Sequence record: NC_049813.1
DNA: 44,219 bases
Reading direction: 5' to 3' (one strand)
Source: Escherichia phage vB_EcoS-12210I
Positions 4,976 through 25,330 of the stretch are shown one piece after another (the stretch's first letter is position 1; every line of letters begins with the position of its first letter). Below the pieces are notes generated by a model. The model was not told the origin of the DNA. It searched no databases and saw only the letters and a program-made list of their open reading frames with translations. Position numbers and translations under genes: made by a program.

Positions 4976-4999
4976 AAAGCCCCTTTCGGGGCTTTTGTT
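4976..4999. terminator. Bidirectional rho-independent terminator
   Basis: Hairpin AGCCCC-TTTC-GGGGCT with flanking T/A runs between convergent genes. Confidence 0.7.
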
Positions 5000-8410: not shown

Positions 8411-8422
8411 TCTACACTAAAT

Positions 8423-8443
8423 AAAAAACCCGCACTAGGCGGG
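8423..8443 (-). terminator. Intercistronic hairpin with U-run (I-J junction)
   Basis: CCCGC-ACTAG-GCGGG followed by T6 on the minus strand. Confidence 0.5.
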
Positions 8444-8451
8444 TATGATGT

Positions 8452-9763: not shown

Positions 9764-9773
9764 TTATTTCTCC

Positions 9774-10529
9774 TTAACTCTGGTTGGCTTTAGCTTGAAG
9801 GCTTGCTGCAGCGCAGCCGCCGAAATCTAACTGATTATTCTCACCAAATCTAAGTTTGCAACTGTTAACAGTTCCTGCACAGAAGTCTAAAGACGGGTCA
9901 TCAACTGGCTTATCATCCTTATTAAAGTATCTATTTCCATCATAAGTACACCCATTACCGCTACGATACCAACCCCTAGAAGCCCAGTAGCAAACAGACT
10001 GAACAAGTCTTGCGGGGATATAAATACCATCCATATCCATCGGGCTACTTAGCTCAAATGATGCGGTTTTATAATCAACCTGCTTAGGTCGCTCAATGAA
10101 GTAAACGAATCTGCGATAGTCCCCATCAGCAATGCTTCCGTCTTCATTGATGTTGTCTCGCGTAGTAATCCAGATAGTAACCTTAGCCTTAACCAATCCG
10201 TTGTATGTGCGGATAAGTGCGCTAATGCGCTGGTCCACGTTTGATACCGTTAACGTAACCTTGTTAGCCTTGCCGTCAGAAGTCATATTGATACCCGAGA
10301 TACCGAAAGGTCTAGGTCCGTACTCTTCACCGCGGAAGGTGATGGTTTTCTCTGGTAGTGGCTCGCCATTCATCTGGGCCAGCATGATCTCTTCTGGCGT
10401 GTATGAAATATTCTCATTGTGGAAGTTGTAAACGAGACTTCCGAAGGAGGTTCCGTCAACCTGGATTAGTGTCACAATCTCGCCAGGGAAAAGGCTTTGC
10501 AACTGATTTTCAAACTTTGGACTTAGCAT
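9774..10529 (-). CDS. Minor tail protein L-like
   Basis: Synteny; ATG at 10529 with GGAG RBS (the track ORF begins at an upstream TTG). Confidence 0.65.
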   Translation of the reverse strand: MLSPKFENQLQSLFPGEIVTLIQVDGTSFGSLVYNFHNENISYTPEEIMLAQMNGEPLPEKTITFRGEEYGPRPFGISGINMTSDGKANKVTLTVSNVDQRISALIRTYNGLVKAKVTIWITTRDNINEDGSIADGDYRRFVYFIERPKQVDYKTASFELSSPMDMDGIYIPARLVQSVCYWASRGWYRSGNGCTYDGNRYFNKDDKPVDDPSLDFCAGTVNSCKLRFGENNQLDFGGCAAASLQAKANQS

Positions 10530-10542
10530 ATATTTCTCCAAT

Positions 10543-10565
10543 AAAAAAGCCCCGCATAGGGGCTT
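10543..10565 (-). terminator. Intercistronic hairpin with U-run (M-L junction)
   Basis: GCCCC-GCATA-GGGGC then T6, GGAG RBS, ATG; near-identical cassette at 22295-22318. Confidence 0.55.
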
Positions 10566-10568
10566 AGT

Positions 10569-10919
10569 TTAACGCATTGAACTAAATACTTCTACGAATT
10601 GCATGCTTACAGTCTGAACTTCCTTACTGACTGGTGTGACGCTAATACTATCCTGCTGAATAACAAACATGGATGTGTCGCCCTGCGGCGTAGTCCAGAA
10701 GAACGGGGTAATGATGTGGTTGAAGCAGAAATCCATGACATCTCGCCAGTCCTTGTTGGTATATGTCATCTGGTAGCTTCTGGTGTTGCTCCTGTATCCA
10801 CCAGTACCCCTTTGGGTGTAACCATTGCCGAAGCTAACTATTCGCACATTGTTCGTGTTAGAGAACGAGCCGCCTCCATTTTGGATTTGAGTGCACCAGG
10901 TAAATTTATCAATAGCCAT
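10569..10919 (-). CDS. Minor tail protein M-like
   Basis: 116 aa directly downstream of the tape measure gene. Confidence 0.6.
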   Translation of the reverse strand: MAIDKFTWCTQIQNGGGSFSNTNNVRIVSFGNGYTQRGTGGYRSNTRSYQMTYTNKDWRDVMDFCFNHIITPFFWTTPQGDTSMFVIQQDSISVTPVSKEVQTVSMQFVEVFSSMR

Positions 10920-10946
10920 AAAAATCCTTAGGGGCCGAAGCCCCGT
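10920..10946 (-). terminator. Intercistronic hairpin (tape measure-M junction)
   Basis: GGGGCCGAAGCCCC followed by T5. Confidence 0.5.
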
Positions 10947-10949
10947 TAA

Positions 10950-13925
10950 TTAGTTGAATCCACGAAGGTAGGCATACGCCCTACCACCCTGCTGGAAGGA
11001 CTGAGCAATCTCTTCGGCTACGATAGCCTTGACTCCGCTTTGCAGTGCCTTAGCTTGTTCTGGGTCGCTACCTACACCCGAGTTTACGTTAACAGTGATA
11101 CCACTAACATTAACATCTGCTCCACCAGAAACCAAACCACCATTTGCATAACCAGAAGGGCCACCAACAACACCGCCATTTGCGTAACCCTTCATTAGTG
11201 CGTAAAGGTTCTTAACACCAATTCTGCTAGTCGCTTCTTTTGTGAATACAAACTCACCGCGGTGCACCGTTCCTGCTGGCTGATACTTACCACCATTGCC
11301 AGTATAGCCGCCACCAGCAAAACCCAGGCCAGAAGCAATTGAACCAAAGGCGCCGCCAGTACCGCCGAAGCTACTTAAACTGGACTCAATAGCCTTGACA
11401 ATAAGAAGCTGAGTTGCAATCTTGGCAATCATTTTGAGGATGCTTGCTGTGAACTCCCTAAAATTGGTCTCACCAGTGGTTACAAGGTTTGTAATTTGCT
11501 CTGTTATCCCGTCAAATGCCGCAACGGTTAAGTCCTTAGCAATCTGGTTGTAGTCAGTGTACTTATCTGTCAAGTCAGCGAGAGTGGATATTACACCGGA
11601 TTGCCAGTCTGACCTAAGATTATCCTCTTGCTTGTAGTATTCCTTTCTTGCTTCCAGCAATTGCTGAAAATCAACATCATCAAGAGAGCCACCAGCATTG
11701 ACCTGATTGGACTGAAGAGCCTGAATCTCTTTGGCTCTTTGCAGTTCACGAGATGATAGTCCAGTACCCAAATTAATATTGCTTGCCTCATTGTTAATCT
11801 GAAGAATCTTCTTGCGGTTATCTTCAGCCAACTTATTAGCTCGCTCCTGCAAAGCAATCTGATCACCTAGCTCAGCCTTCTGTCTTGCCAGCTCAAGAAC
11901 TTTATCCTTTTCAATGAGAAGTCTTGCTTGCTCTTTGGTAATTGAGCCATCAAGTTGCCTCTGCTCAAGAATCTGGAATTTGGCAACCTCCTGAAGATAC
12001 TGCTTGCGCTCATTGCTTATTACCGCGCCGATATCCCTGTTTTCCTGAAGAACCTTGAGCTGAGCCTGGAGCGCCAACACGCCAGATTCGTAACCAATTG
12101 TAAGGTCTCTTTGCTCTTTAACCCTACCATTTTCTTCTTTCCTGCTCTTCTTGATCGCATCAAGTTCATCCTGAAGCGCCTTCTTCCTTTTTGCAAACTC
12201 CTCATCAGTACCTGATTGCTCATTGGAATTCTGATTTTCCCTGCGTGTAACGTAACCAAGTTCTCCCTCTCTGATTCTGGCATCTCTCTCCCTGATAGAC
12301 TTCTCTAGCTCAAGGTTTTGCTTCTTGGCGGCATCGATAATCTTCTGCTGACTCTTGATTACATCATCACCGACACCATCAAGGCCTGGGATATTCTGCA
12401 ATGCCTGAGTTGCACTAATTACAAACTCACCAATCAGCGCGTCACCTTGGTTAATGAAGACCTTAATCTGTTCAATTGTCCCGGCTATTACATCAACAAA
12501 CAGGTTTAGCGCCCCAACCGTTCTGCGACTAATCGCATCCCATACATCAGATATGTACTTCCTGAAGTCATTCCAGGCCAATTCAAGAGGAGTAAGCTGG
12601 GCTGCAATATCGTTAAGGTTTGCTTCCTGTGATTTGCTAAATATATCAATAGCAGCAGTTACGGCTTCAACCTCACCCCTAGTCTCTCTCAATCTTTCAA
12701 TTGTTGTTAACTGCCCCTGAGTAAGGAAGTTAAACCTCTTGTCTAAATCAGCAAGTCCTTGAATTGGGTCGCTCGCAATCTGGTTATAGTAACCAGTAAT
12801 TTCCTTTGCATCCTTACCTGTCAACTGCGCCCATCTGGCGGTAGATTTAGTAATCTTGTCAATCTGCGTCAGCGTAAGGTTCCCTTGCTCAATAAGGCTT
12901 GTTGCGATGCTAGTCACAAGTCCTCTGGTTGCACCAGTAGCATCAGAAACAGAGCTAACCAACTCTCTAACCTGCGAGATTGATGCGATTGTGGAGTTGT
13001 TTGAGAACGCAATGGCAGAATTTAATGCTCTGAATTCACTCTCTGCCTGGGCAGCACCGATACCTAGAGCAACAAGCGCGCCACCCAAAACCCCAACAGC
13101 AACATTGAATGGATTTAAGGCTGCAAGCGCGAATCTAAAGGTGTTACCAATACCTCCAAATGCATCCTTAATTTGTCCGCCTTGCTGAATTGCAATAAGC
13201 CAAATCGGAATGCCGCCAGCAAGTGATGTCCCAATATCTGTAATCTGCGCTGGCAATTGAGAGATTGCAGCCTTGTATTGGCCTGCGCTTAAGCCAGAGC
13301 GTTGAAAGGCCTTGCTCTGAGCAATTAGCTGGGTGTTTGCCTTCTGTGATGCATCGGCGATTCTGTCAATAATAGGCGCTGCCTGAGAACTTACGCCAAG
13401 CTGAGCAGCCTGTAATTTTAAGTACTCCTCACGCGTCAATGTTGCCGCTTGAGCCTGACGCTCAAGTGATGCAATGAATCTATCCGCTTCAGCCTTTGCC
13501 TTTGCCTTATCCTTTGCAGCTTGCGCTGCCGCTCTACCCTCTTCAGTTAGTGCCGCACGTGAACGAGCAAGTTTTGCGTTCTGCGTTTCAAGCGCCTCAC
13601 CTAAGCGGAAAAACTCCTCATCAGGAACTACGCCAGCCGCGAATGCCTTATCAAGACCTACCGCTGCCTCTTGCAGCTTACGGAACTTTGCCGCAGTTGG
13701 GTCAATAGCCGTTTGCAATTTAGCCAAAGATGCTTGCTGTTCAGCAAGTGCGCGAGCCGTGTCTCTAGCCTGGTTTTTAGCAACCTGCTCAGCGTTGACG
13801 AACTCACTAATACCGGAAGCAGCCTGCTGGTTTGCCTGCCTGAACTTTTGTAGGGACTGCGTACCCCTGTCTACTTGCGATACGTCTACGGCTAGTGTGA
13901 TTCCGGCTAATTCATTTGTTGCCAT
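10950..13925 (-). CDS. Tail tape measure protein, 991 aa
   Basis: Long Ala/Gln/Glu-rich helical protein with Gly-rich C-terminus, downstream of G/GT. Confidence 0.8.
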   Translation of the reverse strand: MATNELAGITLAVDVSQVDRGTQSLQKFRQANQQAASGISEFVNAEQVAKNQARDTARALAEQQASLAKLQTAIDPTAAKFRKLQEAAVGLDKAFAAGVVPDEEFFRLGEALETQNAKLARSRAALTEEGRAAAQAAKDKAKAKAEADRFIASLERQAQAATLTREEYLKLQAAQLGVSSQAAPIIDRIADASQKANTQLIAQSKAFQRSGLSAGQYKAAISQLPAQITDIGTSLAGGIPIWLIAIQQGGQIKDAFGGIGNTFRFALAALNPFNVAVGVLGGALVALGIGAAQAESEFRALNSAIAFSNNSTIASISQVRELVSSVSDATGATRGLVTSIATSLIEQGNLTLTQIDKITKSTARWAQLTGKDAKEITGYYNQIASDPIQGLADLDKRFNFLTQGQLTTIERLRETRGEVEAVTAAIDIFSKSQEANLNDIAAQLTPLELAWNDFRKYISDVWDAISRRTVGALNLFVDVIAGTIEQIKVFINQGDALIGEFVISATQALQNIPGLDGVGDDVIKSQQKIIDAAKKQNLELEKSIRERDARIREGELGYVTRRENQNSNEQSGTDEEFAKRKKALQDELDAIKKSRKEENGRVKEQRDLTIGYESGVLALQAQLKVLQENRDIGAVISNERKQYLQEVAKFQILEQRQLDGSITKEQARLLIEKDKVLELARQKAELGDQIALQERANKLAEDNRKKILQINNEASNINLGTGLSSRELQRAKEIQALQSNQVNAGGSLDDVDFQQLLEARKEYYKQEDNLRSDWQSGVISTLADLTDKYTDYNQIAKDLTVAAFDGITEQITNLVTTGETNFREFTASILKMIAKIATQLLIVKAIESSLSSFGGTGGAFGSIASGLGFAGGGYTGNGGKYQPAGTVHRGEFVFTKEATSRIGVKNLYALMKGYANGGVVGGPSGYANGGLVSGGADVNVSGITVNVNSGVGSDPEQAKALQSGVKAIVAEEIAQSFQQGGRAYAYLRGFN

Positions 13926-13940
13926 CTAAGCCTCCATAAT

Positions 13941-13970
13941 AGAAAACCCGCCGAAGCGGGTTATTTTTTT
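13941..13970. terminator. Hairpin with runs on both sides (GT-tape measure junction)
   Basis: ACCCGC-CGAA-GCGGGT; T7 on plus side. Confidence 0.5.
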
Positions 13971-14595
13971 CTCAGGTTGTCCATCATCTCAAGAGCTTTA
14001 GCTTCAAGGATGCGTAAATCACTGAGCACCAATTCTTCTTCAGAAACATTATACACTCTAAAGAGGAAATTTAGCACGTTGTAATCAAGACCTGTTACTC
14101 CATTAGCTCCGACTCGCCACTGTGTAGCCATTGAACAATAAATGTCCCACGCCTTCATCATGTTATCGTCGAAGTGCAAAACTTCAGGCTCTTCGTCTTC
14201 GTAATCAGAGCGGCGCATCCCAATAGCTTCCAGTTCGGCATCAGTTGGTTCTGACTGGTACTGTAGATACACCGCTCGTTTTAGTTTTTTACACGCTGAC
14301 CAGCCAGTGCTTGCATATAGGCGGTAGTTAGCGCAACGGTTGAAGCAGGGAATAGGTCACAGAACTCATTAACGTTATCCTCGTTGTATTCCTCTTCCAA
14401 GTCCCAGTCAGAGGCAATTGCCATAATAAGCTCTTTGGTGCTCAAGTCTTCCTTTCTAAGTAATTCCTGCAACTCAGATGTTTTCTTATGTTTGACTGTA
14501 AAGATAACCTCTACATCCTGGTCGTTAGCCAGCTTAAATTTTACAGGCAACTTAAAGTCAGGGAGTGCTGCCAGTGAAAGTTTGAACTTTGCCAT
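13961..14595 (-). CDS. Tail assembly chaperone GT fusion made by -1 programmed frameshift
   Basis: Slippery heptamer AAAAAAC at 14284-14290 abuts the G stop; the -1 frame is open into the downstream ORF. Confidence 0.65.
14281..14595 (-). CDS. Tail assembly chaperone G-like, 104 aa
   Basis: Acidic small protein between major tail protein and tape measure. Confidence 0.7.
   Translation of the reverse strand: MAKFKLSLAALPDFKLPVKFKLANDQDVEVIFTVKHKKTSELQELLRKEDLSTKELIMAIASDWDLEEEYNEDNVNEFCDLFPASTVALTTAYMQALAGQRVKN
14284..14290 (-). other. -1 frameshift slippery site A_AAA_AAC
   Basis: X_XXY_YYZ heptamer in the G frame, 0 nt before the TAA stop. Confidence 0.65.
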
Positions 14596-14633
14596 TTTGT
14601 TAATCCTCTTATTGTTTGTGAGTGTGTATTCTA

Positions 14634-14882
14634 TTACTTAGTGTTTTCTTTTGCAATCTTAGCAGCGGTATCCTTGCAAATCTCGCTACCATATTTCATG
14701 ATTTGGTCAACTTTACCACCTACCAAACCCTTGCAAACTCGCTCGGCCTTAGCAAACTCAAAGTTATATTCGCTTGCCTTTGCATTGGCATAAGTCTCGC
14801 CAGTTGGGTTAACAATCTTAACTACCGCATAAAAAGCAACCAGAACCGCAGTAAGTTTGATGATGTTTTTAACGTTATTCAT
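14634..14882 (-). CDS. Moron-like secreted or membrane-anchored small protein, 82 aa
   Basis: N-terminal hydrophobic signal/anchor; own promoter-like module upstream and terminator-flanked; lies inside the tail gene cluster. Confidence 0.5.
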   Translation of the reverse strand: MNNVKNIIKLTAVLVAFYAVVKIVNPTGETYANAKASEYNFEFAKAERVCKGLVGGKVDQIMKYGSEICKDTAAKIAKENTK

Positions 14883-14915
14883 TTAATTAATCTCTCATTT
14901 CGTTTCGATGAGTTA

Positions 14916-14961
14916 ACTATACAGGAAGATTGGATTAACTCTTTAGCAAAAAGTGCCATGC
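14916..14961 (-). promoter_or_regulatory. Promoter-like module copy d (variant element) with TATAGT hexamer
   Basis: Element 14942-14961, hexamer 14916-14921, start region CATCGAAACGA downstream. Confidence 0.5.
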
Positions 14962-14964
14962 AAT

Positions 14965-14986
14965 AAAAAACCCTCCGAAGAGGGTT
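14965..14986 (-). terminator. Rho-independent terminator after the major tail protein gene
   Basis: CCCTC-CGAAG-AGGG followed by T6. Confidence 0.65.
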
Positions 14987-14992
14987 TGTGTT

Positions 14993-15649
14993 TTAAACTT
15001 TAGCTGCCACGGAGGACAGTCGACCACGAATGGATACCGCCATGGATACCGTTTCGATTTCGTTGACACCAATGGCAGGGATGTCATTGAAAGAGATAGT
15101 GCCGGACTGCAAGCGCATTTCCTGAGCGCGAGGTACGAACAGACGAATCGCAACAACCTGGCCAGACTCATCGTATTTACGCAGAACCGGATAGACCGGG
15201 TTGGTGTACTCGTGAGCAAAGGTGAAGGTGTTTGTTACCGCAGATTTATAAGTCGGAATCTGCTGTTCGCGTTCGTCAGAAAGGCACTGGAAGTTAACAA
15301 ACTGCTGTTCGCCGCCGTCAGTAGATACGTCCTGAACACACGGGACTTCGATCCATGAATTAATCTTAACAACCTCACCAGTTAAGCCAGCAGGGAACTT
15401 AGTGGCGTCGGAGGTATCAATACCTTCAACTGTTACCGAAGTGCCAGAAACTTCAGTTACTCGCACCTGTTTGTCGCTAAGTAGGGTTGAGCTGGAGGCG
15501 GTAAACAGAAGGTAGTCACCCTTAGCCAGGCCAGATGCGCTAGATACGGTTAAAACTGGTTTAGTTGCGTTAGAGATTTTAGTTACGTTAATTGGAGTTC
15601 CGCGAGTTCCTTCTACGAAGACCTGCGTGCCATTTGATAAATGAGCCAT
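14993..15649 (-). CDS. Major tail protein
   Basis: 218 aa immediately upstream of G/GT. Confidence 0.7.
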   Translation of the reverse strand: MAHLSNGTQVFVEGTRGTPINVTKISNATKPVLTVSSASGLAKGDYLLFTASSSTLLSDKQVRVTEVSGTSVTVEGIDTSDATKFPAGLTGEVVKINSWIEVPCVQDVSTDGGEQQFVNFQCLSDEREQQIPTYKSAVTNTFTFAHEYTNPVYPVLRKYDESGQVVAIRLFVPRAQEMRLQSGTISFNDIPAIGVNEIETVSMAVSIRGRLSSVAAKV

Positions 15650-15664
15650 GTATTTTTCCTTTTG

Positions 15665-16066
15665 TTAGTCTAGACGAACATAAAAATGAACCGGGATAAA
15701 CCACCCAGACTTGGATTTGATAACCGGGTTAACAACTCCAGACTCGTAAATGGTCCCGGTGTCAAGCATTGTACCATCAACGATAGATTCTGCCAATTGA
15801 TTAGCGATTTGTCTAGGCTTATCAATGCCAGTACCTGGACTGAAGAAGACAGAAACCTGCACCATCCCTACATAGTATTTGCACTTCCTGCTCAGCCCGT
15901 ATGTTACGGTGTCAACCTCGATGTAGTCATACTTTAGCCAGATAGAACCATCTGCTGGAGGAGTGAAAGCAACGTTTTCCCAAGATACTGGATATCTGAC
16001 TGGGAAGTTTTTCACCAGCAAATCATTAACATATTTCCTGGCAGCTATAGACAATTCATAGTGCAC
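15665..16066 (-). CDS. Putative tail terminator protein
   Basis: Position upstream of major tail protein (lambda U-like slot). Confidence 0.4.
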   Translation of the reverse strand: MHYELSIAARKYVNDLLVKNFPVRYPVSWENVAFTPPADGSIWLKYDYIEVDTVTYGLSRKCKYYVGMVQVSVFFSPGTGIDKPRQIANQLAESIVDGTMLDTGTIYESGVVNPVIKSKSGWFIPVHFYVRLD

Positions 16067-16505
16067 GTTTAGCCTCCTCTACTGCTTCCTGGAAGTATCG
16101 ACCAAGCCGCATCTGAACAATCCTAATAATGCCGTTTGGCGCCTGACCCGAACCGCCATACTCAAGGTGAATTGAGTAATCAAGCCTGTTTGTTATGTAA
16201 ATGACCTTTGTTCCCTTTGCTCTGGCTACCGCCCTTGCTTGTCTTGCGAGTGCTCTTTTGGTCTCTGTTCCAAGTTTATCATAGTCAATTACTGACTGCT
16301 GAGCCGGGGAGTTTGCTGTTATTTGCCAGTTGGCTTTAAATCTACCGGTGTCAACTGGTGACTGATCTACCAGGCCATTAGCTGTCTTGATAATGGTTCC
16401 TGCAACAACCTCATCAACTCCAGATTCAACCTTATCTATCCATTCAGAAATGGAGCGGGTAAATTCAATAACCCCGCCATTGGCCTTCGGTATAAAACTA
16501 GCCAT
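16056..16505 (-). CDS. Putative tail completion / neck protein
   Basis: ATG at 16505 overlapping the upstream stop; the track's longer N-terminus overlaps the previous gene. Confidence 0.4.
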   Translation of the reverse strand: MASFIPKANGGVIEFTRSISEWIDKVESGVDEVVAGTIIKTANGLVDQSPVDTGRFKANWQITANSPAQQSVIDYDKLGTETKRALARQARAVARAKGTKVIYITNRLDYSIHLEYGGSGQAPNGIIRIVQMRLGRYFQEAVEEAKRAL

Positions 16506-16869
16506 AAGTAGCCACCCTACGAAGAATTGGCCTGTAGCCAACAACTGTACCAGTTGGTTTAACAGGTCTCGGGTCAACAACAACAAAAGTGTCGCCATTG
16601 ACTTTAATCTGATAACCCTGCTTAATTTCAACCTGCGCCGTGAATATTCCGCGCTTATCGCCAAACTGGATAAACTCACCATCTATATCGCGCGTCTTGA
16701 TTTCTCGCACCAAGCCTTTTAGCTGAAATGTTTGCGAAGGAACTTCAACTTCAACGCCGTTAGCAATTTCAACATATCCATCACCAGTACTCATTTCATA
16801 AACGCCATTGGCATCACTAAAGAAGTTAATGCCAGAGCGAGTGATTGATTCAATTTCACTGTAGTTCAT
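16498..16869 (-). CDS. Putative head-tail adaptor / head closure protein
   Basis: Synteny; ATGA overlap with upstream gene. Confidence 0.4.
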   Translation of the reverse strand: MNYSEIESITRSGINFFSDANGVYEMSTGDGYVEIANGVEVEVPSQTFQLKGLVREIKTRDIDGEFIQFGDKRGIFTAQVEIKQGYQIKVNGDTFVVVDPRPVKPTGTVVGYRPILRRVATYG

Positions 16870-17282
16870 CGGCAACCACACCCACCGCCACCAGCGGAAG
16901 TAATTAAACCGAAGCCGCCGCCTTTCTTGCGGAGCAGTGCTTTGTACATACGGCCGAATTGAGAAGATGATAAGTCGCCAGATGCTGCTGATTGGGTATC
17001 ATAAGTGATAGAGAATTCACCGCTCAGTGCATAACTTGCCATCCTACGGCTGTATGTTTCCAGCCCTTCATTCTCACCCTTAAACGCGCCATCAGCAATC
17101 ATCAGGTGTAGCGCGTAAAGTCCTACTGCCTTATCTTTGTCTGCTCCAAATTTACTTTCGCATACGTATAGGCGTGCCAAATCAATCCATACATTAATTG
17201 ATTCGTCATCCACCGCTTTGAGCGCCGGAACAAGCGAGCGCATAAACGCCAAAATTGCATCATTCATATTAGCTCCATACAA
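16866..17282 (-). CDS. Putative head-tail connector protein
   Basis: Synteny between capsid and tail genes. Confidence 0.4.
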   Translation of the reverse strand: MYGANMNDAILAFMRSLVPALKAVDDESINVWIDLARLYVCESKFGADKDKAVGLYALHLMIADGAFKGENEGLETYSRRMASYALSGEFSITYDTQSAASGDLSSSQFGRMYKALLRKKGGGFGLITSAGGGGCGCR

Positions 17283-17308
17283 TAAAGGACGCCGAAGCGC
17301 CCTGTTTG

Positions 17309-17554
17309 TTATTTGTACTCGTTGCCAGTCTCAGCTTCGGAGATAGTTTTCGGTTCTTTGCGCTTTTTCTTGCTAACAATTTCTTGCGCGATTTGCTTGG
17401 TTGCTTTAGCGTCACCTTCAATAGTGAGTTTACCCTCTGCGATTAAACGCTTGAGTCCGTCGCAAATTACATCAACCTCAAAAGTGTCACCAGGCAAATA
17501 TTTCTCACCCTTGTAAACGATAAGGCAAGCGCCAGTGTGTTCTAAACGAATCAT
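17309..17554 (-). CDS. Hypothetical protein, 81 aa
   Basis: ORF downstream of the major capsid gene. Confidence 0.4.
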   Translation of the reverse strand: MIRLEHTGACLIVYKGEKYLPGDTFEVDVICDGLKRLIAEGKLTIEGDAKATKQIAQEIVSKKKRKEPKTISEAETGNEYK

Positions 17555-17618
17555 TTTTGTCTCCTTTGTTTATCTGATTGAGTGATTATAACCCAACAAA
17601 TCCATTTGGTACAGACGT

Positions 17619-17641
17619 AAAAAAAGCCCTCCGAAGAGGGC
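17619..17641 (-). terminator. Rho-independent terminator after the major capsid gene
   Basis: GCCCTC-CGAAG-AGGGC followed by T7. Confidence 0.7.
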
Positions 17642-17647
17642 CATTTA

Positions 17648-18592
17648 TTAGATTAAGGTAATACCTTTGATTACGGCCATCGTCAGAGGGCGATAAACGA
17701 TCAAACCTGTAGCTTTTGATGTTACAGGGTACTTAAAGTGCAAGTCCTTAGGTTGTCCTGGAAGAACGTTGGTAGCTTCCGGAATCTCGATAGACATATT
17801 GAGTGGACTCTTCTCAAACGCCAGAGCAGCCTTACCATTCGCACCATCGTAGTTGTCCAGGAACTGCAAGAAACGAATGGTCAAACCTGGGTTGTTACGA
17901 GTGAACAGTTCACCGTAGCTCAAATTTGTCTGCGGAACCAGTTGCTGCATAATTCGACGAGCAGAGGCCGGAAGCAGAATGTCAGTCACATGATGGAGGC
18001 CCTGTGTTGAAGTCTCAACTGCGTCAATCATCTCGGTGATATCACCGATTGCGTTGTCCGGAATATTCCAACTTGGAGTTGCAACAACGTTGTTGATGTT
18101 CGGCTGGTCGAATACGCTCACGATGCCGTGCGGGGCGGAACCAGACCACACCAGTTTATCCAGCAGGTTGTCGTGCGCTTCGAAAGCCAGGGCTTGCTTG
18201 CGAGTTGACAGGGACTGACCAGTTGCGGCGCCAGCTTTAATTTCATCAATAGAAATCAGGAATGCGTTACCGAAACGGAACACTTTGCCTTGTTTCTCGT
18301 TCATAAACGCATCAACCAGCGGCAAGTCGTCAGAGTAATCAGCGATAATCTGAGCAATGCCAGCACCATCAAATTCTGGGTACTCGAAATACTTCGCGTG
18401 ACCAGGAATTTCATTTGTTACAGGGAAGATATTAACAACTGAGTTTTCTGCGTATTCTTTTTCGTAAGCACGGTTCAGAGCAGCGGTAAGCTGGCTAACA
18501 GTCCAGATACCAGCGGCATCAGCTTTTTCTACGCCCATTTGCTCGAGGTGAGCGGTGATTTTTGCTTGTTCTGCATCAAATTTAATGGCCAT
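17648..18592 (-). CDS. Major capsid protein
   Basis: 314 aa between scaffold and connector genes; terminator immediately downstream. Confidence 0.75.
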   Translation of the reverse strand: MAIKFDAEQAKITAHLEQMGVEKADAAGIWTVSQLTAALNRAYEKEYAENSVVNIFPVTNEIPGHAKYFEYPEFDGAGIAQIIADYSDDLPLVDAFMNEKQGKVFRFGNAFLISIDEIKAGAATGQSLSTRKQALAFEAHDNLLDKLVWSGSAPHGIVSVFDQPNINNVVATPSWNIPDNAIGDITEMIDAVETSTQGLHHVTDILLPASARRIMQQLVPQTNLSYGELFTRNNPGLTIRFLQFLDNYDGANGKAALAFEKSPLNMSIEIPEATNVLPGQPKDLHFKYPVTSKATGLIVYRPLTMAVIKGITLI

Positions 18593-18664
18593 TCTTTATT
18601 GTTCCTTTTCAGTTATGTGTTTACGGATTCATTATACACGAGTTTTTAGCCCACGCAATGACAT

Positions 18665-18688
18665 AAAAAAAACCTCCCGAAGGAGGCT
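18665..18688 (-). terminator. Hairpin with U-run
   Basis: CCTCC-CGAA-GGAGG followed by T8. Confidence 0.6.
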
Positions 18689-18704
18689 TTATATATCTTA
18701 ATTA

Positions 18705-19214
18705 TTAAGCTGCAACAGTTGAGTCTGCGGATTGAATAAGCTGAACTTCAACTAGTGCGCCATCAACGCTTAGGTCTTGCGGGTCTGTGCCCGTTTTTTT
18801 GATGTAACCACCAGCAAATGTAAAACCAGTCTCCCAAGTAGAACCTGCCGCTTCTGCAACAACAACGCCACTCGCGTTTACGAAAACCTTGCCACCAAAA
18901 GCTGGCGCAGCCGCTAGATTTGTACGAACCCAGATTCGACCATGAGTCATTACGTTAACCGCTTCATTTACGCGAGCTGTGCCATCTGGAGTCTCGTAAT
19001 GAGATTTAACAACAACACCATAAGGTTTAACTGGCGAGCCAGTTACAGCTGGGAGTCCAACAACCTTGTGACCATCTACAGGCTGAGCGGATGTAACGCC
19101 AACAAAAGTGCCAACCGGAATTGGTGCTGCACCGCCAACCACACAAGCACCGTCGATGTTATAGAGCGAAGTATCAGAAATCATACCAGCCAGTGCTACG
19201 GAACGAATTGCCAT
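18705..19214 (-). CDS. Putative head decoration / structural protein
   Basis: 169 aa Gly/Val/Ala-rich, between scaffold and capsid genes. Confidence 0.4.
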   Translation of the reverse strand: MAIRSVALAGMISDTSLYNIDGACVVGGAAPIPVGTFVGVTSAQPVDGHKVVGLPAVTGSPVKPYGVVVKSHYETPDGTARVNEAVNVMTHGRIWVRTNLAAAPAFGGKVFVNASGVVVAEAAGSTWETGFTFAGGYIKKTGTDPQDLSVDGALVEVQLIQSADSTVAA

Positions 19215-19226
19215 GTTTATAACTCC

Positions 19227-20315
19227 TTATTTCTTAATTTTAGCTAAACGAGCACGCGGGTCTAATTTCTTAGGCTCATCGGCGCTGTCATATTTGTCGG
19301 AAGCGGTAGTCGCTTTACGTATTTCAGCCATTTTATCAGATTCTTTGGCAATGTCGAACGCTGCGTCGATGTATGCGTCAGACTTCTCGGAAACATCAAG
19401 GCCGGAGACTTCTTTAACGTAAGCAACTTTAATGCCTTTAGCATCCATACCGTCAGCCTTAACACCAGCTTCAGCAGCAACAGCAACCAGGGCGGCAAGG
19501 GCATCAGCGTCAGCTTTCGCTTTAGCCACGGCAGCTTCGATTTCAGCAGGCATTGCATCTACCTTGGCTTTCAGTGCATCGCGCTCAGCGATTGCGGTGT
19601 CAGCCTTTGCGTTCAGTGCTTCGATGTGAGAGGCGATTTCCGGGGCGACCTCAAATTCCTGCGCGCCGTCGAGTTTAATTTTAACTGTCATTTCATGTTT
19701 ATCCTCTTTATTGATATCAACGTCAGTAGTATACGGGTTTTCCTGCTCACCGTCCATATTCAATTTGGCAATACCTGCGCGACCTCTATACACCATTGCG
19801 AGATGGTTCACTTTAATGTCACGCTGAATTGCGTCGAACTCCTGCCATCCTTCTGGCGCATCGAATTGATCACCATCAGATTTAAGGACGTACTCGCCAG
19901 TAATGGGGTCGCCCCAGCCAGGGGTTTCGTCAAGAATTGCATAGTAACCAACGGATAACTCCTTGGCGTTACCTGCCATAGCTTCCTGAATGGCTGTGTT
20001 ATCGTAAACAACAATCGGAGCAACCACTGAGCTACCCAATGGCTCAGCTTTGCCAGTAACGGAACCTACCACTACCTCTTTAGCGTTCTCTGAGTTAACG
20101 AAAACATGATCAAGAGTCATTGGCTTACCCTGGTAACTAGCGAGGGATTCATCCTTGAAGACTTCCTCGGCTGGGCGAAACTCTCGAACCGTTCGACCGT
20201 CTTCCATGTAGTAGACTTGCACGCCTAGGCGTGCGACTACTGGTGTGTCGACTAGAAATCCATTCTCGTCGATTGTCGCCTTGAACTTTGCGCTGTCATA
20301 GCGGATTTTGCTCAT
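19227..20315 (-). CDS. Putative prohead scaffold (possible protease-scaffold fusion)
   Basis: C-terminal Ala/Lys/Glu/Asp-rich helical region typical of scaffolds; position. Confidence 0.5.
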   Translation of the reverse strand: MSKIRYDSAKFKATIDENGFLVDTPVVARLGVQVYYMEDGRTVREFRPAEEVFKDESLASYQGKPMTLDHVFVNSENAKEVVVGSVTGKAEPLGSSVVAPIVVYDNTAIQEAMAGNAKELSVGYYAILDETPGWGDPITGEYVLKSDGDQFDAPEGWQEFDAIQRDIKVNHLAMVYRGRAGIAKLNMDGEQENPYTTDVDINKEDKHEMTVKIKLDGAQEFEVAPEIASHIEALNAKADTAIAERDALKAKVDAMPAEIEAAVAKAKADADALAALVAVAAEAGVKADGMDAKGIKVAYVKEVSGLDVSEKSDAYIDAAFDIAKESDKMAEIRKATTASDKYDSADEPKKLDPRARLAKIKK

Positions 20316-20327
20316 TTAATTCTCCTA

Positions 20328-21056
20328 TTATGATTCCCAATCTGGAACCGACCAGCAACGACAGCCGTATTCTTGACCTGGAAATATATCGTTACCACCA
20401 AGTTTAAAGCTAAGACCTTCTCTTGCTATGTGAGACTGACGCTCCCTATCATCTAACATGCCATGCCAGATGTAACGGCTAACACCAGCATCCTCAAGCC
20501 TACGCCTCATCAGTGTCGAGTTGAGACTAGAGACAATTCCAGATGCAATATTTGCCGTTCGCTTCCTGTATGTTTTGTACCTATCGGATAACTTAACGTA
20601 GTCACCATTCTGTATTGTTGCAGCCGCCTGTAAGAAATCATCCTTGATGTTATTTAGCAGCTTCCTGGCTGACTTATCCGTGGTGTAAATCCACTGATTA
20701 AGGTCATCATTATACCACGGCTCACCACCATTGATGCCGTTAACCTCAAGGTTCAGAACGCTAGGATTGGACCTTCCTCCGGTCTTTATTGCAAGCACAA
20801 GAAATTGCGAGCTATTGTATCTGTATATCGCCGCCCCTATAGCCGGGATGGTTGATATAAATGACGCCACCAATGCAGAAATTATCCCCTCAAGATATCC
20901 ATCCTCCTCCCCTAGCTCCTCTGCAGTATCAATTCTAAGCCTTGTTGCTGAATCCTTCATTGCTGAAATTAACTCAGTTACCGCAATGCTGAGATTGCGG
21001 TTAACCTTGCTCTCAATTATCTGCGGATACTTCCAGCGGGTCGTTACTGGTTTCAC
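20328..21056 (-). CDS. Head morphogenesis protein (SPP1 gp7 / Mu F-like)
   Basis: Downstream of portal; C-terminal GCRC motif. Confidence 0.55.
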   Translation of the reverse strand: MKPVTTRWKYPQIIESKVNRNLSIAVTELISAMKDSATRLRIDTAEELGEEDGYLEGIISALVASFISTIPAIGAAIYRYNSSQFLVLAIKTGGRSNPSVLNLEVNGINGGEPWYNDDLNQWIYTTDKSARKLLNNIKDDFLQAAATIQNGDYVKLSDRYKTYRKRTANIASGIVSSLNSTLMRRRLEDAGVSRYIWHGMLDDRERQSHIAREGLSFKLGGNDIFPGQEYGCRCWSVPDWES

Positions 21057-22281
21057 TAATCGTCACCTCTGTCTCTACTGAACCGTCACTAATCTTAACC
21101 TCTGGAGCGATTGCGCGCAATGTATCTCTCGCTTCGTCAATATCCATAGCGCCAGATGCAATTAGCGTCGCGATGCTGTTTACGTTCTTCTCAAGAATCT
21201 CGGCCTTATCCTTACTTGATTCCTGCGCTAGGGGATTAAACTCCACTGACCATTCTTGCTCGTCTGAAATGAACGGAATCAGGAACCCGAGAATCGGCAG
21301 TAGTTCAGCGTTACGCTTGCGATCGACTAGCTTATGGAATGTCTCCAATGCGGTGTTCTGACTTGATGATACGCCGCCAACGTTCTTGTTCTTCAGGATA
21401 ATCTCATGAATACCGCTCAGCGCAACGATTCTGTCGAACTTCTTATCCAGGAACGCATCAATCCCGCCAATATCAGAGTTCAGAACACTGTATTCTTCAG
21501 ACTCTGCGTCAATGCCAATTGCCTGACCAACGCCACTATTGTTATCAACCTGAGCTAGGCGCAATCTTGCAGCGCCAAATCCTTCGCTATCATCACACAA
21601 TTCAGCAAGACCCTTGGCTTTCCACACCGCCTGCTGCTTGCGCTTCAGTAACTGCGTAGCAAGTAGTTCGCAGTTGGTGTAATCCTTAATTGAGTCAAGA
21701 ATGTCACTGGAGAGAACGCTGCGGCCCCAGCCATCATTCTGCCGACGCATTACGTTAGGAATTCGCTCTCCGTCAATGATGTGAATGCGGCTGTAGTGCA
21801 CATCATAGAACATATCGCTCTCATTAGTTGTGATGCGATAGGTTAGTGGCTTACCAAAACGCGCGTTGCGTGGGTTCTCCTCGCGAGTCTGGACTTTTAC
21901 CTGCGTACGGTCGTAAACGCGAACAGTTTCAAGTTCAGCGCCTTCTCTGACCGGACTTGTTAGCGCCCTATTGTCCTTAACGATAGCGACAATGGCAGAA
22001 CCGCCGAACAATCTCGCCCATGACCAGGCTTCATTGATGTGCTTTGTTAGTTCTAGGTAGTCCCAGCGCGACCAGAATGCAGGCTCATCATCAATTCCAT
22101 CAATGTGGAATCCTGCCGCTAATGCTGTTTCCGGGATTGTGTCGATTATTCGACGCACCAGCGCATTATCCGCATAAAGCGAAGCTAGAATTGTAGGGGC
22201 TTGGCTCTGCAAGCTCCCGTAAATCTCACTACCATCACTGCCGCCTAGAAAGATATTGGCGTAGCTGTCTGTCTTGACCAT
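21013..22281 (-). CDS. Portal protein
   Basis: About 422 aa after terL; start reset to ATG 22281 with GGAG RBS because the track N-terminus runs through a hairpin. Confidence 0.7.
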   Translation of the reverse strand: MVKTDSYANIFLGGSDGSEIYGSLQSQAPTILASLYADNALVRRIIDTIPETALAAGFHIDGIDDEPAFWSRWDYLELTKHINEAWSWARLFGGSAIVAIVKDNRALTSPVREGAELETVRVYDRTQVKVQTREENPRNARFGKPLTYRITTNESDMFYDVHYSRIHIIDGERIPNVMRRQNDGWGRSVLSSDILDSIKDYTNCELLATQLLKRKQQAVWKAKGLAELCDDSEGFGAARLRLAQVDNNSGVGQAIGIDAESEEYSVLNSDIGGIDAFLDKKFDRIVALSGIHEIILKNKNVGGVSSSQNTALETFHKLVDRKRNAELLPILGFLIPFISDEQEWSVEFNPLAQESSKDKAEILEKNVNSIATLIASGAMDIDEARDTLRAIAPEVKISDGSVETEVTISETSNDPLEVSADN

Positions 22282-22294
22282 GTTTTTCTCCAAT

Positions 22295-22318
22295 AAAAAA
22301 GCCCCATACACGGGGCTA
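22295..22318 (-). terminator. Intercistronic hairpin with U-run (terL-portal junction)
   Basis: GCCCC-ATACAC-GGGGC then T6, GGAG, ATG; paralogous to 10543-10565. Confidence 0.55.
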
Positions 22319-22329
22319 GTTTATCACGC

Positions 22330-23904
22330 TTATTTAATTCCTGCGAGGCGTAACATCCGCGATTTAGGGTCATCTGCAAGGTTTAGCTCGCAGTTTATTG
22401 CCATTGTTGTTGTATCTACAATGTCATCATGGCGGTGGCTCATGTCTGCTGTAAATGCTGAAAACTCAGAGATGAATGCACTCATCCACGGCGCCGATTC
22501 TGGAATCATTACATTTCCAGCCTTAATCTGAGGCATTGCTGACAGCACTCTGGTAACTTTATCTGTATCTGGTATAAATGGCTCAATAGGTGTACGCATA
22601 ACCCTGCTTGCAGATTGAATCAGACCGATACCAGATGCTTTCTTCTCGATGATTACCTTCCGAAGAATACCCTCCTCCCGATTAGTCTTTCTCGCATTGG
22701 ATTCAAACTCTAGCAAGGTAGCCTCAAGCTCGGGCGCTTCATACTTACCCCTAACCATATCAAGAAGGTATAGCTTTCTGTCTTTTACTCCCCACAGCTG
22801 GAATACACTAAAGTCACTGTACGACTTCGTGGTAAGCGCGGTATCCGCAGTAATAAATCGGTAATCATACTTCAATGGCGCTCGCAAATCTCCACCGTAA
22901 CGTATAAACCAATCCGTATCCACCATGTTGCCACCTAGAGCTATGGGGCTTTGCATATATTGACTTGCGAACGTGTATGGGTCTGCGTCTTGCATAGCCA
23001 TTAAATCATGAATGGATTCCTTTTGTGGGTAGTAGCTGTAGTACTTAACACCATCTCGCTCGATGTACTCACTAGATAGAACGTCAGCCTCGAAGTGTGG
23101 TTTTAACCAGTCAGGAAGTGTGTCGATGTAATCCTCAGTAACTATCGCCGGAATCTTCACCACATCGAAGTCTATCCCCATACCTCCAGATTCAGCCATG
23201 AACCAACTTGAGTCGTTAACATGCAATCGCTGCTGTATGGAAATAATTGGTGTGGCCTTACCCTTGACCGAGCTAGCCCTACGAGAGCGAATGGTGTTCT
23301 TCAGGAGCATATGAACCGACTCTCGGCGAACCTTGCTAAACATGTCATCAACCTTATCTACATCATCCAGCATAAGGCAACCACTATAGGTGTCAGTAAT
23401 GTAGCCGCCACGTGAACCTGTAATCTGGCCTCCGATAGCTTTTGATATCGACTCAAAGCGAACCTTGCCTGACTCATCGAGAACCTGAATCTCATCATCC
23501 TTGCACGTGCCAAACTTGCTAGGGAATAGCTCCTGAAACTCCTTGCACTTAATTAGGTCGCGCACTCGCTTAGAGTTTCGCTTAACCAGGCTATCAGAGA
23601 ACGAAAGGCTAAGATTTCGCACTTTTGGTAGTTTTAGATAGCTATAAACTGGAAAGTGGATGGATGTGATCTCGGTTTTACCGGCGCCAGGCGATACGTT
23701 TATGATTGTATCCTTTCGATCTCCGCTAATAATCTCGTCAACTATCCTGCAAAGATACCTGTGATGCCAGTTCATGATGTACTTCTGGCCCTGTGTCAGG
23801 CTGAACCATACCCGAAGGAATGTCTCGAAGTTATGCGTGGAAAGAAGCCTGATGGCTTGCTTTTCTGATTGGGATAGCTCCTCCCAAACTAAAACATCAC
23901 TCAT
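22330..23904 (-). CDS. Terminase large subunit
   Basis: 524 aa with Walker A-like PGAGKT and acidic C-terminal nuclease region; position. Confidence 0.8.
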   Translation of the reverse strand: MSDVLVWEELSQSEKQAIRLLSTHNFETFLRVWFSLTQGQKYIMNWHHRYLCRIVDEIISGDRKDTIINVSPGAGKTEITSIHFPVYSYLKLPKVRNLSLSFSDSLVKRNSKRVRDLIKCKEFQELFPSKFGTCKDDEIQVLDESGKVRFESISKAIGGQITGSRGGYITDTYSGCLMLDDVDKVDDMFSKVRRESVHMLLKNTIRSRRASSVKGKATPIISIQQRLHVNDSSWFMAESGGMGIDFDVVKIPAIVTEDYIDTLPDWLKPHFEADVLSSEYIERDGVKYYSYYPQKESIHDLMAMQDADPYTFASQYMQSPIALGGNMVDTDWFIRYGGDLRAPLKYDYRFITADTALTTKSYSDFSVFQLWGVKDRKLYLLDMVRGKYEAPELEATLLEFESNARKTNREEGILRKVIIEKKASGIGLIQSASRVMRTPIEPFIPDTDKVTRVLSAMPQIKAGNVMIPESAPWMSAFISEFSAFTADMSHRHDDIVDTTTMAINCELNLADDPKSRMLRLAGIK

Positions 23905-23922
23905 TGTTATACCCTCTTATTG

Positions 23923-24429
23923 TTATAACTTGCTAATCACGGACTCCAGCGCCTCCTTCATACTATCAACGTCGTTAGCTGTGGAGTTGTTGCTAATCTT
24001 AATCTCCTGCGGCTTATCAATGCCAAGTTCTTTACCAACGATTGTGGAGTTGATGATACCCGCAACGCCAAGCTGATACTTCTGCTCGTAGATTACGTTA
24101 TCAATAAATTCCATCACATCAGAGTACCCAGCCTCAGTACGCCAGCGTGCGAATCTATTGATGTTGACACCCATGAAGAGCGCCAACCCGGTTAATGTGA
24201 ACACGCGCGGCTTGTGTACAAGGTTTTCACTAACAACGCCCTGGAAAGCTGCTGTCTCAATTGCCTTAATTGCCTCACTCTCTGCCCAGGAGAAGTATCG
24301 AACGGCGAAATTGAAGACCTCCTCTGGTGTGTACTTGCGGTTGATTGCCACCATGGCAATATCGCCATACTTCTTGTTGTATAGCGCCTTGAAATTTCCC
24401 TCACCCATCTTTAGTGCTGCTTTACTCAT
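23923..24429 (-). CDS. Terminase small subunit (putative)
   Basis: 168 aa directly upstream of terL; AAGGAGG RBS. Confidence 0.55.
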   Translation of the reverse strand: MSKAALKMGEGNFKALYNKKYGDIAMVAINRKYTPEEVFNFAVRYFSWAESEAIKAIETAAFQGVVSENLVHKPRVFTLTGLALFMGVNINRFARWRTEAGYSDVMEFIDNVIYEQKYQLGVAGIINSTIVGKELGIDKPQEIKISNNSTANDVDSMKEALESVISKL

Positions 24430-24452
24430 AAATCCTCCTTTGTTGAGGTCAG

Positions 24453-24461
24453 ATTATACCA
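24453..24461 (-). promoter_or_regulatory. Extended -10 element TGGTATAAT upstream of terS (candidate late promoter)
   Basis: Perfect TGnTATAAT about 24 nt upstream of the terS ATG. Confidence 0.4.
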
Positions 24462-24472
24462 TATTGGAGACG

Positions 24473-24495
24473 AAAAAAAGCCCTCAAGCGAGGGC
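24473..24495 (-). terminator. Rho-independent terminator separating the early block from terS
   Basis: GCCCTC-AAGC-GAGGGC followed by T7. Confidence 0.7.
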
Positions 24496-24540
24496 TAAAA
24501 ACAACGAGAGAAACGAAACTTTACAAGGGTATAACACTTT

Positions 24541-24723
24541 TTACTTTCGCTCACGAACGTAAGCTACAAGGAATTTGTGAGTGTCAGGGTCAGCACCTGA
24601 CATCTCTTTTACTTTCGCTACCGCATCCTCAGCGCTGATTGCGGCAACTGACGCGATGTAATCTTGAGAGCAATTCTTGCAACTGCGGCCCATTAAGCGA
24701 ATGGACAACTTCACATCCCACAT
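24541..24723 (-). CDS. Hypothetical protein, 60 aa
   Basis: AAAGGAG RBS; starts 15 nt downstream of the tRNA. Confidence 0.5.
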   Translation of the reverse strand: MWDVKLSIRLMGRSCKNCSQDYIASVAAISAEDAVAKVKEMSGADPDTHKFLVAYVRERK

Positions 24724-24738
24724 AATGAACTCCTTTAT

Positions 24739-24816
24739 TGGCGCTCCGCACTGGATTCGAACCAGTAACCTACGACTTAGAAGGTCGTTGCTACTATCCT
24801 ATTGAGCTAGCAGAGC
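24739..24816 (-). tRNA. tRNA-Arg (anticodon UCU), CCA encoded
   Basis: Manual cloverleaf: acceptor GCTCTGC/GCGGAGC (one G-U), T arm ACTGG-TTCGAAT-CCAGT, anticodon stem ACGAC/GTCGT with loop CUUCUAA, 5-nt variable loop; D stem weak. Confidence 0.8.
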
Positions 24817-25090
24817 CTTGAATGAGTCCCGGTTACGGCTCCGGGGCTGCCTGATACAGCCGGTTAATCTGCCTATTTGCGCTAGGTCTTAATGCCGTAT
24901 ACGCTACCTAATGAGCAACGGACTTATTAGCTGCGCTCCGTGCGCCGTTCCATCTTGGATGGCTCGATTGCCTACGTGGTTAATGTTAGATAATTCCGGT
25001 CAGTGATGCAAGCTCTTTTTTACAACCTCCATCTAAACGATTAAAAAGCAACCCCAAGCAATCAGTCCCGCGATAAACCAGATAGTAAAT

Positions 25091-25330
25091 TCACTCATAA
25101 AGACTATTCCCATTCTCGTCATGACCCACACGACCCTTAAGATATCCACTAGTCCAAACAAAGCGATCTCGACTAATGATTGTAAAAACTGGCTCCCACA
25201 TCTTAGAAATCAACGTCGCAACATGCTTATCGTCCTTACGCTGCTTTGGCGATAGCTTGCTGTACTCTTCGTTCAACTTTGCGGCCTGACGTTTAACTGC
25301 GTTGAAGTGTGCTTCTGATAATCCGAACAT
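25091..25330 (-). CDS. Hypothetical protein, 79 aa
   Basis: ORF in the early minus-strand block. Confidence 0.45.
   Translation of the reverse strand: MFGLSEAHFNAVKRQAAKLNEEYSKLSPKQRKDDKHVATLISKMWEPVFTIISRDRFVWTSGYLKGRVGHDENGNSLYE

Follow-up and report, generated by a model that had tools for sequence, protein, structure and literature searches.

Comparative analysis of Escherichia phage vB_EcoS-12210I (sequence record NC_049813.1) points to a structured leader RNA of 161 nucleotides (nt) directly upstream of its only transfer RNA (tRNA) gene, tRNA-Arg(UCU). The whole stretch of 44,219 nt was analysed and is referred to here as the window. Every gene of this region lies on the minus strand, so that upstream corresponds to higher coordinates; positions 24817..25090 are thus upstream of the tRNA, as had been claimed in a first-pass annotation made from the sequence alone. 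Judged by its conservation in relatives, this upstream stretch is not empty and appears to hold a conserved 21-codon open reading frame (ORF), a candidate promoter and the leader RNA. The leader very probably represents a functional, transcribed and structured RNA family, and sequence comparison indicates that this family spans the Drexlerviridae, phage T1 included, and that it is new both to Rfam 15 and to the GenBank records and papers examined. On the minus strand, the promoter (25011..24983) is followed by the leader (24977..24817), tRNA-Arg(UCU) (24816..24739), a 60-codon ORF designated ORF60 (24723..24541) and an intrinsic terminator (24496..24479) (Table 1). The best explanation as a whole, according to which promoter, leader, tRNA, 60-codon ORF and terminator form one transcription unit on this strand, is one that we modestly favour.

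Over a 1-kb segment that was searched, the window proved identical to Escherichia phage vB_EcoS-12397V and about 40 sibling records, which are classed as Drexlerviridae, Braunvirinae, Veterinaerplatzvirus. The Drexlerviridae, or T1-like phages, rank among the coliphages and Klebsiella phages isolated most frequently, with several hundred genomes deposited; to our knowledge, hardly any work has addressed how their transcription is programmed. An RNA that is conserved and covaries, and that keeps a fixed place before the packaging and late genes, in T1 as well, would offer a handle on the control of late genes.

Structure and covariation of the leader RNA

The leader was aligned first with its counterparts in phages Rtp, BEK3, PCEc3, N35, JulesPiccard, TR3 and ACG-M12, and the alignment was later extended to 18 Braunvirinae in all (alignment A2). 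Seven helices, H2 to H8, were proposed by eye from compensatory changes and then counted on this alignment. Their 30 base pairs are formed in 97.6% of 532 cells, with double-sided changes at eight pairs (44 cells); when the 3' partners were slid by 1-3 columns as a control, 22-42% of cells were paired and only 0-2 pairs showed double-sided changes. An independent RNAalifold run on A2 returned the same helices with 10 compensatory pairs, and added to H8 a fifth, covarying pair in which C-G changes to G-C. By the criterion of compensatory substitutions that maintain pairs, the leader is thus a structured RNA. The hairpin GGCTG-N7-CAGCC, singled out in the first-pass annotation, was found at 24861..24845.

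At three helix positions of A2, G-U is the majority state. The opposite strand would have A-C mismatches in place of these pairs, so the strand that folds is that of the tRNA. The same positions bear on the suggestion that the element acts at the level of DNA, as a pac site, an origin or an operator array. The distance of about 0.4-0.8 kb by which it precedes terS might suggest such a role, pac being found at that position in some pac phages; however, majority G-U pairs imply single-stranded RNA of defined polarity, and we regard a DNA-level element as very improbable. A pac site in particular was rejected, since the terminal repeat of the T1 record, and hence pac, lies at 1-2800, about 5 kb from the T1 element at 7622-7745.

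Chance hairpins in a meaningless spacer behind a promoter would account for a folding energy that is no better than that of shuffled sequence. This explanation is hardly credible in light of the compensatory changes at 8-10 pairs with slid controls near zero, and of the rebuilding of the same helices with different sequences in at least eight genera. Moreover, conservation of the leader matches that of the genes beside it: the identity of its core to ACG-M12, TR3 and Rtp is 86%, 75% and 94%, respectively, and that of the flanking ORFs 73-93%. A leader more conserved than its flanks was thereby ruled out, its conservation being about equal to that of the neighbouring protein genes. The support for the fold is evolutionary, not thermodynamic.

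The leader does not appear to encode a peptide: on the minus strand within 24817..24977, there is no ORF of at least 20 codons and no conserved reading frame, and the leaders of relatives differ by insertions and deletions of 2-4 nt. A mini-ORF starting inside H2 was rejected because the frame of its start codon differs between stem variants. Further pairings were discarded on comparative grounds. The long-range AGUCC/GGACU helix of the minimum-energy fold is broken without compensation in FP, Msk, TR3, ES and the ACG-M12 group; the pairing of ACGG (31-34) with CCGU (58-61) fails in TR3 and ES, which have CCAU instead and compensate at 81-84; and a kissing contact between the H3 and H8 loops is not supported, there being only a constant 3-bp RCG/CGU complementarity with no covariation. 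Seed pairing of the tail sequence ACUCAU with AUGAGU of terS was likewise dismissed, as it comprises only 6 bp and is not conserved in Rogue1. A search of the window for a second H8-type hairpin gave seven loose matches versus 3.9 expected, of which the other six lacked supporting context; no second copy was thus found.

A CGYAA loop motif recurs in the leader, as GCGCAAA in H6 and ..CCGUAA in H8, and as GGCGUAAA in inserted modules. Such modules enlarge the leader by hairpin insertion or duplication in JulesPiccard (L005, 363 nt), AugustePiccard (L017), Rtp (L004) and FP (L015), among them an H7-H8 pair present in duplicate and an additional GAGG-AUAAGGCGUAAA-CCUC hairpin; these lineage-specific insertions are confined to two or three fixed points. 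The H4 loop carries UGCUCAUUA (24909..24917, minus strand), which matches the rrn boxA core of Escherichia coli, UGCUCUUUA, at 8/9 positions. This sequence is nearly invariant in Braunvirinae and absent from other genera, and a boxA-like role was rejected on account of that restriction.

An RNA family of the Drexlerviridae and its tRNA cargo

A model built from Braunvirinae only (R1) detects the Rogunavirinae weakly, at 17.6 bits, so motif searches and synteny were used to follow the family further, with the conserved start motif, the final hairpin and the ORF downstream as guides. Diverged versions were found in the Rogunavirinae (Rogue1, e4/1c, Opt-79, Sd1, Sf12, phiEB49 and Phagiculus), in Nouzillyvirus (ESCO41 and CJ19), in Sauletekiovirus AAS23, Tlsvirus SP-126, Hanrivervirus grams and Webervirus Sweeny, and in three uncultured viral contigs. 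Phage T1 carries its copy of the leader element at 7622..7745.

These versions follow a common plan. A putative strong promoter comes first, followed by CGUAGAC..AGAG from +1, H2, the AACG junction and H3, the loop of which reads RCGGA or RCGAUW; then come a variable middle, H7, H8 (with a loop ending in CCGUAA, or in GGUAA in Rogue1) and a short A/U-rich tail. The stems vary between genera, and the loops and the AACG junction are conserved. Thus, 13 tabulated representatives display 11 distinct H2 stems and eight distinct H3 stems, all fully paired, including an H2 that pairs as GCG/CGC in L103; the 16 representatives tabulated for H7 and H8 display seven distinct H7 stems and eight distinct H8 stems, again without a single unpaired position.

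The candidate promoter is shared as well. The hexamer pair, its 17-bp spacing and its distance to the conserved CACGUAG are kept in every genus examined, and hexamers nearer to consensus occur elsewhere, such as TTGACA-17-TACATT in ES, TTGACG-17-TAGTAT in Rogue1 and TTGACC in T1. In the window, an A-tract (25021..25016) lies upstream of the hexamers. On these grounds the pair may work as a promoter, with transcription predicted to start at about 24977. The first-pass annotation suggested that the stretch might hold either the promoter of the tRNA or a small RNA missing from the annotation; both find support in the comparisons, in the form of a hexamer pair at a fixed distance from CACGUAG and then a covarying RNA.

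Known RNAs do not account for the leader. A covariance-model search of the window, run with the 4227 models of Rfam 15, found no family that matches the leader: only the tRNA reached the gathering threshold, and there was no hit in the leader at E <= 10. Eight homologous loci likewise matched no Rfam family besides tRNA at E <= 5. The leader is not a copy of a host RNA, given that a blastn search against 5,426 E. coli genomes returned no match. It is without annotation in the GenBank records examined, and literature searches for a small RNA (sRNA) or an antitermination system of T1 or the Drexlerviridae retrieved nothing relevant; in the paper on phage MSK, cmsearch is reported to have found no sRNA.

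Hairpins resembling H8 were also seen farther afield. Hairpins of the CCGG-A(N)UCCGUAA-CCGG type (L076, about 900..925; L090; L079) occur in Plesiomonas phage phiP4-7 just downstream of a promoter and, in two unrelated viral contigs, before Shine-Dalgarno sequences, with L090 also having a CACUCAU tail. About half of such 17-mer hairpin matches in the collection are expected by chance.

The relation of the leader to the tRNA is best seen in ESCO41 and CJ19, which have near-identical leaders, one compensatory A-U to G-C change in H7 apart, and near-identical downstream ORFs. In ESCO41 alone, an insert of about 190 nt separates the H8 tail from the Shine-Dalgarno sequence; it contains tRNA-Arg and an odd second tRNA. 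Elsewhere, the same insertion point is occupied by Arg(CCU), Trp+Arg, Arg+Val or Ser tRNAs, and it carries no tRNA in T1, AAS23, L104 and SP-126. Between ACG-M12 and the window, moreover, the tRNA is only 75% identical and the leader 86%. Taken together, these comparisons indicate that the tRNAs are interchangeable cargo between H8 and the next ribosome-binding site, and that the leader is not tRNA-specific. Because relatives keep it without a tRNA or with other tRNAs, it is not a "tRNA leader" in origin; its association appears instead to be with the promoter and with a location preceding the small ORFs and terS. In these phages, the lone tRNA would accordingly be read as cargo behind a strong promoter and a structured leader, not as the reason for the intergenic region.

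Possible functions of the leader

In the proposed mechanism, the cut by RNase P at 24817/24816 that tRNA maturation needs would split the precursor and free a leader RNA of about 160 nt, whose 3' end would be protected by hairpin H8. Trimming of the tRNA 3' end would leave an ORF60 messenger RNA (mRNA) that starts a few bases before its Shine-Dalgarno sequence. As had been claimed, 15 nt separate the tRNA, which ends at 24739, from the ATG of the next gene at 24723; together with the encoded CCA, this arrangement makes it plausible that the downstream mRNA acquires its 5' end through tRNA processing. The freed leader would then act as an autonomous RNA, not as a cis operator of ORF60, with its invariant loops ACGGA, GCGCAAA and ..CCGUAA binding a conserved protein or machine. 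Action in trans as a released RNA is a tentative proposal, which we would not call probable; it is nevertheless given slightly more weight than co-transcriptional action on RNA polymerase, which seems unlikely.

Several points weigh against the proposed unit and mechanism. The promoter, the start site and the release by RNase P are all inferred, and the hexamers of the window are weak (3/6 and 4/6), falling below the threshold of a consensus promoter scan. The folding energy of the 162-nt stretch resembles that of shuffled sequence (z = -0.53; antisense, +0.10). No module is universal: Webervirus has only the 5' half, and AAS23 only H7-H8. Finally, relatives without a tRNA show no obvious element that would form the 3' end of a free RNA, and the element there is simply a 5' untranslated region (UTR). 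The leader also differs from a classical terminator-ended (Hfq-type) sRNA, as in the window no U-tract comes after H8 and the tRNA follows directly; a U9 tract after the H8-equivalent hairpin occurs only in Hanrivervirus grams, where it abuts the next Shine-Dalgarno sequence.

Certain known RNAs invite comparison with a leader released by tRNA processing. Species 1 and 2 of phage T4 (rnaC/rnaD) are small, stable, structured RNAs without an assigned function, which are transcribed together with tRNAs and freed by the enzymes that process these. Their genes sit inside the tRNA array or behind it and move along with it, whereas the present leader precedes the tRNA, starts at +1 and persists without a tRNA. 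The 3'ETS-leuZ RNA of E. coli is a by-product of a tRNA precursor with a function of its own, a short base-pairing sponge of the kind derived from 3' or internal spacers. In contrast, the phage RNA is a 5' leader with conserved hairpin loops, not a spacer of a host operon, and for it a function after release is only proposed. GOLLD and ROOL are phage-associated structured RNAs of unknown function that often adjoin tRNA genes; they are 3-5 times larger and come from other hosts, and their Rfam models give no match here at E <= 10. The lambda nut sites and the boxA/boxB leaders of rrn operons resemble the leader in combining hairpins with short conserved single-stranded motifs near the start of an operon. 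Unlike in those systems, the boxA-like UGCUCAUUA (compared with UGCUCUUUA of rrn) is present only in Braunvirinae, and no N-like protein was identified.

Another explanation is that the leader serves in cis as a 5' UTR or precursor element, with hairpins that stabilise the transcript towards RNase E, keep Rho away from about 240 nt of untranslated RNA, or guide the processing or translation of the tRNA or the small ORFs; the leader would then have no existence as a separate RNA. In genomes without a tRNA, H8 is indeed followed after 8-12 nt by the Shine-Dalgarno sequence of the first ORF, and an A/U-rich AUUC motif retained in the tail downstream of H8 might serve as an RNase E site. Moreover, among conserved phage RNA motifs no class is commoner than structured 5' UTRs (PMC10690425). 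Nevertheless, the invariant loops, the AACG junction and the conserved 5' segment exceed the needs of a stabiliser, and genera differ in which ORF comes first behind the element (phrog_6666 in T1, phrog_2919 here). A purely cis role on ORF60 is unlikely in particular because compensatory evolution continues in lineages with a tRNA, in which processing would cut the ORF mRNA off from the leader. Overall, we consider a cis-acting element improbable, without dismissing it.

Processive antitermination by RNA, as known from the putL and putR elements of phage HK022, is another option. Here, the nascent leader would bind the transcribing RNA polymerase and render it resistant to the 24496 terminator and to the late-operon terminators of the following 20 kb. 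Almost no terminators occur in the 10 kb that precede the leader, whereas the sense strand of the late operon (4976..24496, minus strand) has about 10 strong intrinsic ones. At four of them (22317, 17303, 13962 and 10565), the Shine-Dalgarno sequence and ATG of the next gene follow within about 10 nt, a pattern that is annotated in the T1 record as well; the genes after these four would depend on read-through, because there is no room for a promoter. The U9 tract of Hanrivervirus grams, abutting a Shine-Dalgarno sequence, suits this idea too, as does the start of the element at +1 of a conserved promoter, always just upstream of terS and the late genes. In addition, T1-like genomes have been reported with 18-21 terminators versus 5-10 promoters (PMC4070988). 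Like the leader, putL and putR are phage-encoded, promoter-proximal, built of hairpins and located upstream of intrinsic terminators; put RNA, with its two stem-loops, acts over >10 kb and independently of a tether (PMC9378689), and the leader could likewise act untethered. Excision of the tRNA would not matter for such action, since HK022 put needs no tether to the nascent transcript.

The differences are nonetheless considerable. HK022 put, which binds the zinc-binding domain of the RNA polymerase beta' subunit, is an RNA of about 70 nt that features two long stems, a triplex and an A9-G35 platform, and all its known examples come from HK022-like temperate phages, whereas the leader comprises about 160 nt with seven short hairpins (5-8 across the family) and belongs to virulent T1-like phages. 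The two are likened by description; put itself was not located, as neither an Rfam scan of the HK022 immunity region nor an inverted-repeat search of the HK022 record produced a match. Furthermore, the lack of any universal module sits poorly with this mechanism, literature linking T1 to antitermination was not found, and the terminators may simply be leaky attenuators. A conserved extended -10 element, TGGTATAAT, comes right after the 24496 terminator, and -10-like elements follow several of the later ones, so that the late genes need not depend on the leader promoter. Antitermination of this kind is therefore doubtful in our view; should the idea prove true, unlikely as that is, the leader would represent a second known class of RNA-only processive antiterminators and would explain late-gene expression of phage T1.

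Flanking genes, terminators and the tRNA

Table 1. Features of the leader region and late operon, listed in the direction of the minus strand.
Feature	Position	Strand	Basis or description
21-codon hydrophobic membrane-type ORF	25033..25098	-	MSEFTIWFIAGLIAWGCFLIV; sequence, conservation
Putative sigma-70-type promoter	24983..25011	-	-35 TTGCAT (25011..25006), 17-bp spacer, -10 TAACAT (24988..24983)
Structured leader RNA, 161 nt	24817..24977	-	Covariation, 18 Braunvirinae
Leader 5' single-stranded segment	first part, from 24977	-	CACGUAGGCAAUCGAG
H2	24962-24958 / 24954-24950	-	
Junction AACG	between H2 and H3	-	
H3	24945-24942 / 24936-24933	-	Loop ACGGA
H4	24921-24918 / 24898-24895	-	Encloses H5
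H5	24916-24914 / 24905-24903	-	
H6	24886-24883 / 24875-24872	-	Loop GCGCAAA
H7	24860-24856 / 24850-24846	-	
H8	24845-24841 / 24832-24828	-	Loop AGCCGUAA
Leader tail	24827..24817	-	ACUCAUUCAAG
tRNA-Arg, anticodon UCU, encoded CCA	24739..24816	-	ARAGORN; Rfam RF00005, 57.1 bits
Spacer, 15 nt	24724..24738	-	Shine-Dalgarno AAAGGAG (24736..24730); sequence
ORF60, 60 codons, phrog_2919	24541..24723	-	PHROGs, E = 1e-28
Intrinsic terminator	24479..24496	-	AGCCCTCGCTTGAGGGCT + T7; terminator scan; would close the leader-tRNA-ORF60 unit
Extended -10 promoter-like element	24453..24461	-	TGGTATAAT; directly after terminator, 24 nt before terS start (24429)
Further late terminators	22317, 18690, 17642, 17303, 14987, 13962, 10565, 8444, 4995	-	

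The 21-codon hydrophobic ORF reported in the first-pass annotation is present at 25098..25033. Its ATG overlaps the stop codon of the preceding 79-codon phrog_303 ORF (25330..25091, minus strand), and its peptide, MSE[FL]TIWFIAGLI.., is conserved with synonymous changes in Rtp, IME253, EC3a, UViG290 and N35; a related peptide, MTELSIWFLAGMLTWIYFVVMA, is found in the Rogunavirinae. The ORF is without annotation in the GenBank relatives examined, and the twin record MK907228 has no feature there. In N35, EC3a, IME542 and FP, a second small hydrophobic ORF immediately precedes it.

Downstream of the tRNA, ORF60 was found by tblastn in 784 phage records, and all those examined are Drexlerviridae. 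The motif MGRxCxxCxQ and one His are invariant in its alignment. Single-sequence AlphaFold gave a confidence score (pLDDT) of 73 with five models that disagree, a prediction too unreliable for a fold search. The terminator at 24496 is conserved in Rtp, ACG-M12, TR3, Rogue1, Phagiculus, CJ19, ESCO41 and MM01 and has an annotated equivalent in T1. Across genera, T1 included, the extended -10 element retains the motif TGGTAnAAT; the cassette of terminator and extended -10 element ahead of terS (24453..24496) is conserved nearly base for base in the Braunvirinae, the Rogunavirinae, Nouzillyvirus and T1.

The tRNA itself is a genuine gene, ordinary and known from public annotation. ARAGORN accepts it as the single tRNA of the whole window, tRNA-Arg (tct) at 24739..24816 on the minus strand, and with the Rfam model RF00005 it reaches 57.1 bits, the gathering score being 29 (E = 8e-10), as a full-length cloverleaf in which model positions 1-71 are all matched; both agree with the initial call of tRNA-Arg(UCU). 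The acceptor stem is paired, CCA is encoded at 24741..24739, and the identical record MK907228 already annotates tRNA-Arg(tct).

AGA and AGG are the rarest Arg codons in E. coli. In a crude codon usage set of 53 non-overlapping ORFs of the window, AGA and AGG occur at 11.6 and 8.1 per 1000 codons, respectively, and jointly make up 39% of Arg codons. They are commonest in large tail-region ORFs, reaching a peak of 36/52 Arg codons in ORF 10950..13925 (minus strand). In ORF 5000..8410 (minus strand) they make up 23/56; these two are the largest ORFs of the late region. The tRNA would thus supplement AGA decoding; since these codons are common in the phage and rare in E. coli, codon supplementation is a sufficient reason for its presence. 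AGA and AGG are absent from several head-region ORFs, for example 17648..18592.

A tRNA-like gene of about 100 nt directly follows tRNA-Arg in PCEc3, EC3a, Opt-79 and ESCO41, with positions 2169..2270 in L002, 1303..1401 in L023 and about 1035..1140 in L074. It has the anticodon loop CUUAUAC (UAU) and a long extra arm; ARAGORN misses it, Rfam scores it as a tRNA at 42.7 bits, and one record labels it tRNA-Ile.

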